Numbered from the stretch's first letter, positions 5,356-8,011 are shown. The stretch is 64,000 nucleotides of DNA from Escherichia coli (GCF_001677475.2 NZ_CP015229.1), one strand, 5' to 3'. Notes: a model not told the origin generated them from the sequence alone. Made by a program: numbers and translations.

Positions 5356-5511
5356 GTGTCATCCAAGGCTAATTATGAATCGCTGGCATCGATCATGCCG
5401 CGTAATGAACAGGAAGCAGATGCTGTAGTGGACCCGGTAATCGCTGAAATGAATGCTCGCCTGGAGGCTGAATTTGCAGCTGAGAATGAACATACCACCC
5501 AGGGCGACTAG
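5356..5511 (+). CDS. small hypothetical protein (uncertain)
   Basis: GTG start after GGGAG; 51 codons; sits between the VRR-NUC gene and the next gene; weak support. Confidence 0.25.
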   Translation: MSSKANYESLASIMPRNEQEADAVVDPVIAEMNARLEAEFAAENEHTTQGD

Positions 5512-6115
5512 GACTGTTTTTTGTGTCGGTAGCGGTCCGTCACTCACTCGTGAGGACTGTGCTGCTATAGAAAAAACTGGCTGTTCAATCATCGCGGTTA
5601 ACAATTCCTGGCAGATGTTCGATGACATTTATGCCTTATACGCCGGTGATTTGTCATGGTGGAAGCAATACGGTTCCACCATACCGGGAGGGAGGTTCCG
5701 CAAAGTGACAGCCAACCTGGCGGCGGCGAAATCATTTTCGTTGGAGTACAGGCGATATTGTGGACCGGCGGAAGGGGTAAATAGCGGCGCGCAGGCTATC
5801 AGTCTGGCTGCTGAATCAGGGGCTGAAGTAGTGGTATTAGTCGGCTATGACTGTTCTCTGCAAAACGGCCTTCATTGGCATGGCGCGCACCCTCAAGCCC
5901 TACGGAATCCAACGCAGGTGTCTATTTCAAAATGGCAACAGCAGTTCCTGGATACCCGCAAAAAACACGCAGATTTACATATTTTGAATGCAAGTAGGAG
6001 CAGTGCAATTCAATGTTTCCCAAGAATAAATTTAGAGGCAGTGATCGCGTTATTATCGTCGGCAGTGGCCCAAGCGCCGCAAACTTTGTTGCGCCGCGCG
6101 GAGTGCCGATTATAG
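5486..6115 (+). CDS. Rossmann-like protein with N-terminal VGSGPS...AVN motif (DUF115/MptE-like?), paralog 1
   Basis: track ORF 5453-6115 trimmed to ATG 5486; motif FCVGSGPSL...IIAVNNSW...VLVGYD; 3' end overlaps the next gene by about 100 nt. Confidence 0.5.
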   Translation: MNIPPRATRTVFCVGSGPSLTREDCAAIEKTGCSIIAVNNSWQMFDDIYALYAGDLSWWKQYGSTIPGGRFRKVTANLAAAKSFSLEYRRYCGPAEGVNSGAQAISLAAESGAEVVVLVGYDCSLQNGLHWHGAHPQALRNPTQVSISKWQQQFLDTRKKHADLHILNASRSSAIQCFPRINLEAVIALLSSAVAQAPQTLLRRAECRL

Positions 6116-6639
6116 CGGTCAATGGGGCCATCGACTGGCTTAACCGCGCTTCTTATTTTTTCACCCTTGATCCATCCCCAGACAATATGCGGCGCGTTGG
6201 TCGTGGCCGCCGTCGCCGTGGTGTTTGTTATTGCATGGCACTACCCGATGTTAAAGAACGTGAAGTCAGAGACGGCGTTCTGTGCTTCCGTCGTGTGGCT
6301 GAACGTGGCATGGAGCCAAAAAATACGAATTCTCCCGAGTGGTGGGCGTGGCGCTGGTCCGCACATTTCGGACTTTGCGAAGATGAGAATGAAATTGCCA
6401 GCGGCAATAGTGCATATGGCGCTCTGAACCTGGCTTTCCATATCGGATTCAAACATGTCGCCCTGGTGGGCGTTGACGCTACACAAGAACCACGCGTTCA
6501 CTCCGGCGGCACGCCAAAAAATCTAAGTCACCTGCCTTTGTTATTCCAGTCTGCGCGTGAACAGATTGACGTTGTTTCATGCGGGAAAATGGGAGGTATT
6601 CCGCAGATGACTCTTAAAGAATGGCTGAAGAATACATGA
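6013..6639 (+). CDS. Rossmann-like protein with VGSGPS...AVN motif, paralog 2
   Basis: 208-aa track ORF; IIVGSGPSA...IIAVNGA...ALVGVD parallels the upstream gene. Confidence 0.55.
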
Positions 6640-7313
6640 TGGCACCCACAATTTATCACCGTATCGACGGTACCAAATACAGGAATGTCTGGGTTGTTGG
6701 TGATCTGCATGGTTGCTACACCAGACTGATGTCCGAACTCCATCGTGTGGATTTTGACCCGGCGCAGGATTTACTGATATCGGTCGGCGACCTTATCGAT
6801 CGCGGTACTGAAAATGTCGAATGTCTGGAACTATTGCAGATGCCCTGGTTCAGGGCAGTAATGGGGAACCATGAGCGGTTGATGCTCGATGCGTTAAGTC
6901 CTGATGGCAACGTGAATAACTGGCTAATGAATGGCGGACAATGGTTCTTCATGCTGGACACTGATCAGGAAATATTAGCCAAGGCGCTGGTGGAGTTGGT
7001 AAGACGACTGCCCTATATCATTGAGTTGAACACCGGGCAAGAAACTATCGTTATAGCCCATGCCGACTATCCGGATAATGAATATCAATTCGGTAAGGAG
7101 GTGCCGCTTTTCAACGTTGTCTGGGCGCGCGAGCGTATCAGTGATTCGATGGATGATATTGGTGGCGAAATTTCGGGCGCAGATCGTTTTATCTTTGGTC
7201 ACACTCCGGTGAAAATCCCGAAGACATTCTGGAATCAGCATTATATCGACACTGGTGCCGTATTTTGCGGAAACCTGACATTGATGAAAGTGAAAGGTGA
7301 TGGTGCAGCATGA
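6636..7313 (+). CDS. Ser/Thr protein phosphatase, lambda-PPase/PrpA family
   Basis: metallophosphatase motifs GDLHGC, GDLIDRG, GNHE and strong similarity to the lambda phosphatase sequence as recalled; ATG 6636 overlaps the upstream stop (ATGA). Confidence 0.85.
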
Positions 7314-8011
7314 AGATTGCTTTAGTTCTTCGCTCTGGTGGTGACTATAACGCTTCCGATGTGCAGTGGCTGGTTAATCAACTGCCAAAAGGCTATGAAA
7401 TTATTTGCCTGACAGACCTGAAGCGTTTACATGTACCTGGCGTCAAAGTTGTCCCATTGATCAACCAGTGGCAAAAGTGCCGTGGCTGGTGGGCGAAAAT
7501 CGAGTTGTTCCGACCGGATATAACCGATGATCTGTTCTATCTGGATTTGGACACGGTTATTGCCGGTGATATACGCCCAATCCTTGAGAATCCACCAACC
7601 AGCTTCACCATGCTTAGGGATTTTTACCATCCACAATATCGTGGTAGCGGTGCCCTGTGGATACCAAATAGTGTAAAAGCGCATATCTGGAGTTCATTCT
7701 GGCAAGATCCGGAAGGTTGGATTTCTCGTTGTGTCACTACTGAGTGCTGGGGTGATCAGGGGTTCTTACGGAAGGTTATGGGCGATGATACACCAGCATT
7801 TCAGGATCTGTATCCGGGATGGTTTGTAAGTTACAAGGCCGATGTTGTGGAACCTGGTTCAAAATATGCAAGCGCGCGTTACTCCAGGGGGAATGGGGCA
7901 TTACCAAAGGACTGCCGAATAATCTTTTTCCACGGCAAACCGCGACCTCGCGAAGTGTCAGAGGATTGGCTTCCCCTTATTAGCTCGTTTTTTGAGCTAG
8001 AATCAGAATAA
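7310..8011 (+). CDS. hypothetical protein with DxD motif (possible glycosyltransferase-like)
   Basis: 233-aa track ORF; start overlaps the phosphatase stop (ATGA); YLDLDTV motif. Confidence 0.55.

Follow-up and report, generated by a model that had tools for sequence, protein, structure and literature searches.

A P1-type phage-plasmid operon and its predicted glycosyltransferase triad in phages of Gram-negative hosts

The closest described system is the operon of phages P1 and P7 (AF234172, NC_005856, AF503408), which has been present in databases for two decades as the P1 operon pmgN-pmgO-pmgP-ppp-pmgQ, and whose P7 equivalents are named hdmA-hdmB-hdmC-ppp-hdmD. RefSeq and PHROGs already label its products as sialyltransferase-like, phosphatase, and glycosyltransferase. 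The pmgN gene was essential by CRISPRi and non-essential by deletion (PMC10695390), and pmgO, pmgP, ppp, and pmgQ were not required for plaque formation (PMC10695390; PMC9024508).

For the individual products, the described relatives fall into three groups. Ppp, which has the metallophosphatase motifs GDLHG, GDLIDRG, and GNHE, is a full-length homolog of lambda phosphatase (NinI/orf221), at 64% identity according to the P1 annotation. PmgO and PmgP are to be compared with the Maf glycosyltransferases, the GT42 sialyltransferases, and WaaZ, the Kdo III transferase of Escherichia coli K-12 lipopolysaccharide (LPS), in CAZy family GT73. PmgQ is to be compared with the retaining GT8/GT77 enzymes, such as glycogenin, LgtC, WaaJ/WaaO, GlyE, and AgtA. 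As for whole systems, the capsid of the chlorovirus PBCV-1 is glycosylated in a manner similar to that of mycobacteriophages. Virion glycosylation in the mycobacteriophages Che8 and Rita (Freeman et al. 2023, as summarised in PMC11256854), in which virus glycosyltransferases, sometimes with methyltransferases, act late on structural proteins, is the functional model that we favor here.

The operon and its P1 counterpart

The window analyzed here is a 64,000-nt stretch of Escherichia coli DNA, and its positions 5356–8011 comprise the pmgN-pmgO-pmgP-ppp-pmgQ operon of a P1-type phage-plasmid. In blastn comparisons, the DNA was 97.7–99% identical to P1, P7, RCS47, SJ46, and other records, in which the same ORFs are annotated; the match spans 3.2 kb and was seen in 19 phage records at 98.2–99% identity. 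The gene order, the gene overlaps, and the C1 operators are shared with the P1/P7 operon, at a DNA identity of 98.2%. Compared to P1, PmgO differs by 0, PmgP by 1, Ppp by 5, and PmgQ by 4 residues. The pmgM gene, just upstream, is disrupted in the window by an ISEc10-family IS21 element, whereas the operon itself exhibits no such difference from P1.

The P1 features were placed on the window by the +899 offset of the blastn alignment. The small first gene, pmgN (5356..5511, plus strand; 51 aa), is annotated in P1 and matched phrog_2350 (E = 5.7e-37), and its 3′ end overlaps the start of pmgO. On the same strand follow pmgO (5453..6115), pmgP (6013..6639), ppp (6621..7313), and pmgQ (7310..8011). 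All four ORFs of the presumed operon in the earlier note are thus present and form, with pmgN upstream, one tightly packed unit, with a C1-controlled promoter annotated on the 5′ side and a hairpin and T-run on the 3′ side.

On the 5′ side, the P1 record AF234172 annotates a region (5257..5312, plus strand) with the promoter PpmgN (−35 at 5257–5262 and −10 at 5278–5283) and the C1 repressor operator Oppp/Op83 (5296–5312, minus strand). Our own consensus scan detected no sigma-70-like site in 4650–8350, and PpmgN is thus placed from the P1 annotation alone. Because the promoter is C1-repressed in the lysogen according to this annotation, the operon would be expressed in lytic growth. The downstream boundary (8013..8067, plus strand) contains the C1 operator OpmgRa (8013–8029), which is annotated in P1 and present in the window as ATTGCTCTAATAATTCC, and a hairpin, ACGTGATG-N6-CATCACGT followed by T5 (8041–8067), which was read by eye from the sequence and is not among the terminators listed by the automatic terminator scan.

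Another phosphatase gene, pap, is found 1.6 kb further downstream. None of PmgO, PmgP, Ppp, and PmgQ matched the PADLOC defence-protein models. As a copy of a catalogued P1 operon, the window itself offers very little that is new. More useful is the comparative result, a conserved and sometimes fused triad in phages of Gram-negative hosts only, often just behind the capsid gene.

The three predicted enzymes of the triad and the pmgO/pmgP overlap

PmgO and PmgP belong to separate, widespread families (phrog_4603 and phrog_2111, respectively; E = 1.6e-132 for PmgP). In a pairwise BLASTP alignment, they were similar over VGSGPS...IIAVN (E = 0.003; 14 of 36 residues identical), and the comparison of the two family profiles by hhalign gave a probability of 97.9% (E = 3.2e-13) over 162 columns, including the NSG...G-x-D motif, which is well past chance. 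The identity at the profile level was about 25%. These comparisons indicate that, as judged from sequence, PmgO and PmgP are real but ancient paralogs. They bear out the homology that the earlier note had drawn from the shared VGSGPS...IIAVN...GxD signature; its Rossmann-like fold, of a nucleotide-binding type, is likewise supported. Its duplication in situ, however, is at best ancient, given the low profile identity, the separate families, and the adjacency of the two genes already in very different phages. The pmgO start at 5486, which had been read previously, is Met12 of the annotated ORF and is an alternative start. PmgP is the most conserved member of the triad: its homologs in Ochrobactrum, Pseudomonas, and P2-like prophages are 53–60% identical.

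In the structure model of PmgO, the fold is the one common to MptE, Maf, GT42 enzymes, and WaaZ, with a Maf glycosyltransferase as the best structural match, and PmgP was placed in the Maf/GT42/WaaZ fold by profile homology. The GT42/Maf-type motifs in PmgO (GxGPS, N, (T/S)G, G-x-D, then His) aligned with those of Cst-II. The residues invariant in the PmgO family alignment are G28-P-S-L, N50, S111-G112, G131-Y-D, and H141/H143, whose roles are presumed from the Cst-II structure. The sequence similarity to Maf (PDB 5mu5) and to Cst-I/Cst-II of GT42 (PDB 2p56, 1ro7) is not significant alone (E = 0.26–0.5), and, unlike Maf, PmgO is a bare catalytic domain of ~190 residues that lacks the Maf flanking domains. 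A PDB sequence search with the PmgO and PmgP family profiles returned nothing significant, and NCBIfam contained no match for PmgO.

For the Pfam family PF01973 (MptE-like, DUF115; gathering cut-off 34.6 bits), the scores of PmgO (23.4 bits) and PmgP (20.9 bits) were both below the cut-off. The PmgO-PmgP fusion protein P0051 passed it with 44.6 bits, and PF01973 is also assigned to several PmgO/PmgP homologs in precomputed domain tables. WaaZ carries PF01973 and would belong to this superfamily; the domain pair PF01973 and PF27901 occurs both in WaaZ and in P0051. With a 22-member WaaZ alignment, the hhalign probability was 74.8% for the PmgP family (E = 2.6e-5; 189 collinear columns) and 41% for the PmgO family (84 columns); with WaaZ as a single sequence, it was only 12.7%. 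The collinear motifs are (I/V)I..SGP(S/T), IIAVNG, (Y/F)x(L/F)T(L)D, and, after a helix, G-x-D. In the WaaZ model TIGR04437 (equivalog cut-off 200 bits), PmgP scored 11.9 bits (E = 0.11) and PmgO had no match. WaaZ would be a remote relative at most, and it differs further in being encoded by a chromosomal LPS-core gene and in being about 75 residues longer.

Pyrophosphokinases such as MptE and thiamine pyrophosphokinase share this fold, and the transferase chemistry of PmgO and PmgP is therefore deduced from their context. We consider it highly improbable that the two resemble MptE or thiamine pyrophosphokinase in activity and transfer pyrophosphate to a small molecule or a nucleotide, for example to disturb the metabolism or signalling of the host. 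A Maf glycosyltransferase is the best structural match, and the order of motifs (GxGPS, N, SG, GxD, then His) agrees with Cst-II and WaaZ. Moreover, PmgO and PmgP are constantly accompanied by a GT8-like enzyme and by sugar-tailoring methyltransferases, in some cases as covalent fusions. In a full-text literature search on the enzyme class, neither MptE nor DUF115 appeared in any of the matches listed.

The ends of pmgO and pmgP overlap by 103 nt (6013..6115, plus strand), in agreement with the approximately 100 nt described previously, so that PmgO residues 187–220 lie over PmgP residues 1–34. The arrangement was seen in 19 phage records and 80 IMG/VR contigs, and it recurs in diverged relatives, with overlaps of 94 nt (phiNP), 70 nt (JK004, L112, L119, L121), 40 nt (L111, L115, L116), and 37 nt (IME392). 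In the family alignments, the conserved part of each protein faces the variable part of the other within the overlap, and the nucleotide identity among P1-like variants was 0.72 in the overlap, compared to 0.58 and 0.66 in the pmgO-only and pmgP-only parts, respectively. pmgP has its own ATG, with AGGAG ahead of it.

The alternatives, namely that a sequencing error shifted the frame of a single ancestral gene or that programmed −1 frameshifting yields a PmgO-PmgP fusion, appear very remote. The −1 frame of pmgP with respect to pmgO, the presence of a heptamer in the pmgO frame that is formally slippery (A_AAT_TTA, 6028–6034), and the existence of P0051 as a natural fusion would fit such an origin, whereas the full length of both ORFs relative to their families, the separate start signals of pmgP, and the constancy of the arrangement across many independent assemblies and diverged relatives argue against it. 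The heptamer, which would occur by chance in a 34-codon stretch with an estimated frequency of roughly 7%, was absent in 5/5 diverged relatives (JK004, phiNP, IME392, L011, and Xoo-sp13), and the programmed site was dropped on account of this lack of conservation. These results indicate that the 103-nt overlap is a genuine dual-coding junction, at which pmgP is initiated separately, and not a frameshift junction.

PmgQ matched the "glycosyltransferase" family phrog_1962 (E = 1e-127); Pfam (E ≤ 1) and NCBIfam returned no match, hence none to Glyco_transf_8. In a Foldseek search of the PDB with the PmgQ structure model (pLDDT 94.8), the matches were AgtA (6mw5, E = 3.6e-9), glycogenin, LgtC, GlyE, and WbbM, with E values from 3.6e-9 to 2e-7 for AgtA, glycogenin, LgtC, and GlyE. 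The DxD motif, from which the protein had been singled out previously, corresponds to D79 and D81, both of which were invariant in 54 PmgQ family members, as were H208 and G209 of the C-terminal FHGxPRP motif (H208, G209, P213). By hhalign, the DxD and H-x-G-x-(K/R)-P-W motifs were aligned with those of E. coli WaaJ. These results indicate that PmgQ has a GT8-like glycosyltransferase fold, with the DxD and the C-terminal His motif in common with the GT8/GT77 retaining enzymes. The identity to those enzymes is, however, 11–17% and the TM-scores are only 0.5–0.6, and the PmgQ family (2601 representatives at E ≤ 1e-3) constitutes a separate large clade, mostly from phages. In BFVD, the PmgQ fold was matched over part of the length of phage proteins of 685–700 aa that are named MptE-like.

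Ppp and the distribution of the triad

Ppp matched Pfam Metallophos with 59.5 bits (cut-off 21.5) and the NinI-like phrog_246 with E = 1e-112, in accord with the earlier assignment as a lambda-type (NinI-like) Ser/Thr metallophosphatase. Its score in NCBIfam PRK11439 was 278.7 bits, below the equivalog cut-off of 326, and Ppp thereby stays below the equivalog cut-offs for E. coli PrpA/PrpB. For the two 4-nt overlaps that had been proposed on either side of ppp, the one with pmgQ was confirmed (ATGA, 7310–7313), whereas pmgP and ppp overlap by 19 nt with the P1 start and by 4 nt (ATGA, 6636–6639) only if the alternative start ATG at 6636 is used. The start at 6636 would fit the N terminus of lambda phosphatase better.

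A scan of viral contigs with the PmgP alignment yielded only P1 copies (99–100% identity), and a rescan with a distant first sequence yielded about 25 diverse loci. Phages of the P1-like, lambdoid, P2-like, HK97-like, and jumbo types carry pmgO, pmgP, and pmgQ as a set that lacks ppp, and the three genes are adjacent in phiNP, IME392, Xoo-sp13, JK004, L011, L096, L102, L105, L108, L118, and others. The three proteins are also found as fusions, in the combinations O-P (P0051), Q-O (P0181, P0222, P0234, P0240), Q-P (P0288), and P-Q (P0312). Their putative glycan-tailoring partners are methyltransferases, either fused or neighboring, a sulfotransferase, and a PIG-L-like protein.

In contrast, ppp is absent between pmgP and pmgQ in the P1-like JK004 and in five further loci (L106, L111, L115, L116, and L124), and none of the non-P1 modules examined contains it. 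In phage D6, ppp has a different context, and in other phages the slot of ppp is filled by a methyltransferase. Only in the P1 lineage does ppp lie within a glycosyltransferase module. These comparisons of gene content indicate that the conserved unit is O+P+Q without ppp, and that ppp is a lineage-specific insertion between pmgP and pmgQ; the phosphatase does not belong to the conserved module.

The distribution of ppp also bears on the view, developed from the earlier note, that the four genes, including the phosphatase, constitute one coupled pathway that modifies a small molecule, a nucleotide, or a protein via phosphate removal. The translational coupling of the P1 genes, through the ATGA overlaps that flank ppp if the 6636 start is used, and the presence of pap downstream would be consistent with such a pathway, but the absence of ppp from the modules listed above, its other context in D6, and the methyltransferase in its slot elsewhere make it quite improbable.

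The module lies directly after the major capsid gene in at least 8 siphophage-type contexts. In D3, L011, L012, L097, L101, L110, L113, L114, and L118, it follows the gene of the major head protein, precedes that of the head-tail adaptor, or does both. A simple ORF caller erred on some high-GC loci, and the capsid genes of L114 and L118 were recovered by hand. In HK97-type phages, the module is situated between the major capsid and head-tail adaptor genes, within late operons. In lambdoid and P2-like phages, it occupies accessory-gene (moron) sites, either between the lysis genes and terS or downstream of the portal gene, and in P1 it is not beside the capsid gene. According to the phage records and the named proteins, all hosts are Gram-negative. 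The capsid C termini beside the module have short Gly/Ser/Thr tails with nothing distinctive. They are uninformative, because HK97-type capsids generally end in such tails.

Proposed function of the triad

We consider the best reading to be a lytic-phase glycosyltransferase triad, with Ppp as an independent cassette and a real pmgO/pmgP overlap, and give it about an even chance. The "small-molecule, nucleotide or protein modification module" of the earlier note pointed in the right direction, and can be narrowed to a predicted glycosyltransferase set with two Maf/GT42/WaaZ-like members and one GT8-like member. PmgO, PmgP, and PmgQ would act as one functional unit of three soluble glycosyltransferases. 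Maf, the GT42 sialyltransferases, and WaaZ all use CMP-activated 2-keto-3-deoxy sugar acids and would serve as the model for PmgO and PmgP, for which a CMP-ulosonic-acid-type glycosyltransferase activity is predicted. Their likeliest donor would be host CMP-Kdo, because the module carries no sugar-synthesis genes and the phages are those of Gram-negative hosts only. PmgQ would be a GT8-like, metal-dependent (DxD and His) hexosyltransferase with UDP-hexose as the probable donor. Acting together, the three would assemble a short glycan on one shared acceptor, and the methyl- or sulfotransferases that often accompany the module would tailor it. Ppp, a lambda-type protein phosphatase, would be a cassette that the P1 lineage acquired between pmgP and pmgQ, where it is co-translated but not required by the mechanism of the triad.

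Because the module adjoins capsid genes, a virion protein, for example the capsid, is our preferred guess for the acceptor, which we hold with somewhat less than even confidence. In its widest form, the proposal is that a portable set of two Maf/WaaZ-like enzymes and one GT8-like enzyme, often with a methyltransferase, puts a short acidic glycan on virion proteins of P1 and many phages of Gram-negative hosts (D3-like, HK97-like, P2-like, lambdoid, and jumbo), with CMP-Kdo and UDP-hexose of the host as donors; we regard this as tentative and rather doubtful. The mycobacteriophage systems differ from the triad in that they use other enzyme families and the Maravista glycosyltransferases lie near the right genome end; for P1 and the other phages with the triad, glycosylation is a prediction. 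In the P1 cryo-EM and virion-proteome literature that was searched, glycans and PmgO, PmgP, and PmgQ were not mentioned. Several of the findings above argue against the glycan reading, namely the scores of PmgO and PmgP below the curated MptE-like and WaaZ cut-offs the lack of a Pfam match for PmgQ, and the occurrence of the PmgO fold in pyrophosphokinases, and, for the virion acceptor in particular, the position of the P1 module away from the capsid gene and the moron sites in lambdoid and P2-like phages.

With this proposal, three "putative morphogenetic" genes acquire a concrete hypothesis, virion glycosylation or LPS remodelling, that is cheaply testable, as P1 is genetically tractable and single-gene deletions exist already. 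If virion glycosylation were true, it would be the first such system described for phages of Gram-negative bacteria, would involve an enzyme class that has so far had no link to phage biology, and would be relevant to the immunogenicity of phages and to their adsorption in phage therapy.

Glycosylation of phage DNA bases by PmgO, PmgP, and PmgQ, as an anti-restriction hypermodification, is extremely unlikely. Sugar modifications are not known from P1 DNA. DNA methyltransferases neighbor some of the module loci, and glycosyltransferases of this general fold hypermodify DNA in other phages, but the DNA-modifying enzymes described in that study (bioRxiv 10.1101/2023.12.21.572611) carry R...DDD...EDY/F and not DxD and His. 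A hydroxymethylase or TET-like gene was found beside the module in 0 of the loci examined, and DNA glycosylation was rejected for the motif mismatch and the missing partner genes.

The main rival to virion-protein glycosylation is remodelling of the LPS core, although we consider it unlikely. PmgO and PmgP would then have a WaaZ-like role and place Kdo-type residues on the inner core, and PmgQ would act like the GT8 core enzymes WaaJ/WaaO. The P1 receptor is located in the LPS core. New LPS would thus lack or mask the outer-core receptor, and the progeny would be spared adsorption to debris, or superinfecting phages would be excluded. As its title states, the study of Frirdich et al. 2003 (cited in PMC4690856) associates waaZ overexpression with a truncated outer core and less O polysaccharide on the surface. 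For both enzyme types, the cellular proteins most closely related are LPS-core enzymes, an observation that suits this rival equally well. WaaZ is the closest functionally characterized cellular relative of PmgP found here, PmgQ aligns with WaaJ at DxD and HxGxKPW, and the hosts are all Gram-negative. Conversely, because the module is in late structural operons and the P1 promoter is annotated as C1-repressed, an action on the LPS core would begin only minutes before lysis, too late for renewal of the surface. In addition, the similarity to WaaZ is remote, as seen from the TIGR04437 score, and the hosts of the phages that carry the module differ greatly in core structure.

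Identity and boundaries of the operon

Phage RCS47, P1, P7, SJ46 and other P1-type phages are 98–99% identical to the DNA across all of window 4900-8100, and the P1 record AF234172 annotates pmgN, pmgO, pmgP, ppp and pmgQ on the corresponding stretch, with a constant offset of +899 from the P1 locus to window coordinates in the blastn alignment. The encoded proteins differ from those of P1 at 0 (PmgO), 1 (PmgP), 5 (Ppp) and 4 (PmgQ) residues, and RefSeq already gives the product names 'alpha-2,3-sialyltransferase', 'norphogenetic protein', 'metallophosphoesterase' and 'glycosyltransferase'. 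The locus is thus a rediscovered, catalogued operon, and the sequence feature itself was already known.

In AF234172, the operon is preceded by the predicted sigma-70 promoter PpmgN and the C1 repressor operator Oppp (Op83), and is followed by OpmgRa and OpmgRb, the operators governing pmgR-pmgS, the operon that comes next. Between OpmgRa and OpmgRb, just past the pmgQ stop, a hairpin (ACGTGATG-N6-CATCACGT) followed by five T's (8041-8067) looks like the operon terminator, judging from its sequence; it was not among the sites listed by an automatic terminator scan. A second phosphatase, Pap (9648-10154), lies 1.6 kb downstream and carries a HAD/PNKP-type phosphatase domain (E 7e-12).

Upstream, a truncated PmgM remnant (4957-5289) contains a VRR-NUC nuclease domain slightly below the Pfam cut-off. 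An IS21-like element of the ISEc10 family (2462 bp, 2267-4728) is inserted near codon 7 of P1 pmgM, with istB (2331-3086) and two split istA ORFs (3083-3898 and 3934-4635) on the minus strand, and cuts off the late promoter LPpmgL and pmgL from the pmgN-pmgQ operon. After the element, the match to P1 picks up again with 7 bp of overlap, perhaps a target-site duplication. Its best plasmid counterparts align as two segments and are ~53 bp shorter, so that istA may be interrupted here by an internal insertion.

Overlapping reading frames

The operon comprises pmgN (5356-5511, 51 aa), whose 3' end overlaps the pmgO start, pmgO (5453-6115), pmgP (6013-6639), ppp (6621-7313 from the annotated start) and pmgQ (7310-8011). 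The pmgO/pmgP overlap, put at about 100 nt in the earlier note, measures 103 nt. The 4-nt overlap claimed for ppp/pmgQ was confirmed (ATGA), whereas that claimed for pmgP/ppp is 19 nt with the annotated ppp start, and becomes 4 nt (ATGA 6636-6639) only if ppp begins at the alternative ATG at 6636. A sequencing artefact as the origin of the pmgO/pmgP overlap is excluded, because 19 phage records and 80 metagenomic contigs share exactly this arrangement.

Within the overlap, the variable N-terminus of PmgP coincides with the conserved PmgO residues 187-206, and the variable, disordered PmgO tail coincides with a conserved 10-residue PmgP segment. In P1-like variants, DNA conservation peaks in the overlap (identity 0.72 vs 0.58 and 0.66 in the flanking single-coding parts). 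Long overlaps also occur in the Citrobacter phage phiNP (94 nt), in JK004, L112, L119 and L121 (70 nt), in L111, L115 and L116 (40 nt) and in IME392 (37 nt), and the length falls to 4-11 nt in more distant phages. In the phiNP record (L003), the PmgO-like gene (5693-6295, minus strand) is unannotated, and the annotated start of the PmgP-like gene (5166-5786, minus strand) removes the SGPSA motif; the 94 nt are those shared by the two full ORFs.

The heptamer A_AAT_TTA (6028-6034, pmgO frame) inside the overlap is formally slippery and could move ribosomes from pmgO to pmgP, where a -1 slip would join PmgO (~residues 1-193) to PmgP (~residues 6-208). A frameshifting role was set aside and the heptamer treated as chance, because none of five diverged relatives carries it.

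Protein families and the conserved triad

The N-terminal signature proposed to be shared by PmgO and PmgP is real, yet weak in pairwise comparison (BLASTP E 0.003, 14/36 identical); the profile comparison of the PmgO (32 sequences) and PmgP (35 sequences) alignments was decisive (97.9% probability, E 3.2e-13, 162 columns). Both proteins fell under the Pfam MptE-like cut-off, which some relatives pass. The GPSL, N, SG and G-Y-D motifs of the PmgO profile line up with the corresponding motifs of the GT42 sialyltransferase Cst-II, and the E. coli LPS Kdo III transferase WaaZ has an MptE-like Pfam domain and the motif series common to PmgO and PmgP. The WaaZ family profile matched that of PmgP over 189 collinear columns (74.8%, E 2.6e-5) and that of PmgO more weakly (41%).

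The DxD motif ascribed to PmgQ was borne out as D79-x-D81, which is invariant among 54 relatives. The PmgQ model (pLDDT 94.8) resembles the GT77/GT8 retaining glycosyltransferases AgtA, glycogenin, LgtC, GlyE and WbbM (E 4e-9 to 2e-7), and its DxD and FHGxPRPW motifs align with their counterparts in the GT8 LPS core enzyme WaaJ. Because the triad proteins fell below the curated MptE-like, WaaZ and GT8 thresholds while sharing folds and motifs with these families, PmgO, PmgP and PmgQ are best described as phage-specific sister families of, not members of, the families they resemble. Ppp is, as the earlier note proposed, a full-length lambda-type metallophosphatase.

PmgP is unusually conserved (alignment A2), with 53-60% identity between P1 and Ochrobactrum, Pseudomonas and P2-like prophages, compared with 30-43% for PmgO and PmgQ, and its Trp-rich motif SPEWW(L/A)WRWS is highly conserved. 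These features hint at a universal substrate, or at membrane or glycan contact.

Searches with HMMs of the three families located contiguous O-P-Q sets in the P1-like Cronobacter phage JK004, the lambdoid phiNP, E. coli phage IME392, the jumbo Xanthomonas phage Xoo-sp13, a Pseudomonas prophage, P2-like prophages and many IMG/VR contigs. The phosphatase, which the earlier note had included in the module, is not part of the conserved unit. Only P1 and its closer relatives (L112, L119-L122) have a Ppp homolog in the P-Q interval, and the modules of JK004 and the P1-like loci L106, L111, L115, L116 and L124 have none; in phage D6, a ppp gene (89% DNA identity) is set among other genes. The P-Q slot is a recurrent insertion point, occupied by Ppp in the P1 lineage and by a gene of ~190 aa in P2-like and HK97-like prophages. 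This gene encodes a SAM-methyltransferase in HK97-like and lambdoid prophages (scanned in L110 6363-6932 and L117 951-1520; also L094 7573-8133), and the P2-like slot gene (L102 8549-9133, ~194 aa) matched no PHROG family.

In addition, natural fusions were found for every tested combination: O-P (P0051), Q-O (P0181, P0222, P0234, P0240), Q-P (P0288) and P-Q (P0312). PmgQ-like domains are also fused with methyltransferases and with a weak GT9-like segment. Together, the co-occurrence, the fusions and the Ppp distribution provide strong evidence that PmgO, PmgP and PmgQ act in one pathway, into which the phosphatase was inserted later. The P1-like contig L123 carries a Ppp homolog (8576-9292, 58% identity) and PmgQ, and the HMM search gave no PmgO or PmgP match upstream, which may point to a variant module or to a missed gene call.

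Genomic context and a possible role in glycosylation

The module directly follows the gene for the major head protein, directly precedes that for the head-tail adaptor, or both, in at least eight independent contexts of siphophage type (D3; L011/L104; L012/L100; L097; L101, L110, L114 and L118; L113 on the adaptor side). It is flanked by lysis genes and terS in lambdoid phages, is preceded by the portal gene in P2-like prophages and adjoins a host-specificity protein in Xoo-sp13. In all contexts examined, the module shares its orientation with late genes and is closely packed among them. All phage records and all named bacterial sources in which relatives of PmgO, PmgP or PmgQ occur belong to Gram-negative hosts.

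In phage D3 (L008), tblastn and HMM searches revealed one continuous PmgO-like frame (~5762-6406) directly 3' of the major head gene, in the region annotated as orf6.5 and orf7 (5691-6409); the record probably splits a single gene in two, as read from the sequence. D3 orf13, a methyltransferase gene, lies 2 kb downstream amid head-tail genes.

The motif pattern and the constant glycosyltransferase and methyltransferase partners suggest that PmgO and PmgP would be glycosyltransferases, not pyrophosphokinases. To our knowledge, CMP-activated sugar acids are the donors of all characterised transferases with this fold; together with the lack of sugar-synthesis genes in the module and the exclusively Gram-negative hosts, this makes such an acid the likely donor, with CMP-Kdo from the host as the simplest candidate. 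PmgQ would be a retaining enzyme that transfers a hexose from a UDP-sugar. A virion protein is suggested as the acceptor by the late expression of the module and its position beside capsid genes, in analogy to the glycosylation of mycobacteriophage virions (as summarised in PMC11256854). Glycosylation of virions with a Kdo-type sugar, in phages that infect Gram-negative bacteria, is offered as a tentative and rather doubtful proposal. The main rival is that the triad remodels the LPS core: the nearest cellular relatives of both enzyme types are LPS-core enzymes, and waaZ overexpression truncates the outer core, according to the title of Frirdich et al. 2003 (cited in PMC4690856), whereas the late action of the module and its very wide span of hosts speak against it.

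Homology, folds, motif conservation, co-occurrence, fusions and context were observed directly; the functional hypothesis for the triad is new, rests on context and is unproven. The searchable literature yielded no paper on the O-P-Q triad, on fusions of its members or on its position beside capsid genes.

Each of pmgO, pmgP, ppp and pmgQ is dispensable for plaque formation (PMC10695390), as are most P1 genes of unknown function in single deletions (PMC9024508), which is compatible with virion glycosylation and LPS remodelling alike. PmgN scored as essential in a CRISPRi screen and as non-essential by deletion (PMC10695390); since pmgN runs into the start of pmgO, a polar effect may explain the outcome of the knock-down, as may some other cause.
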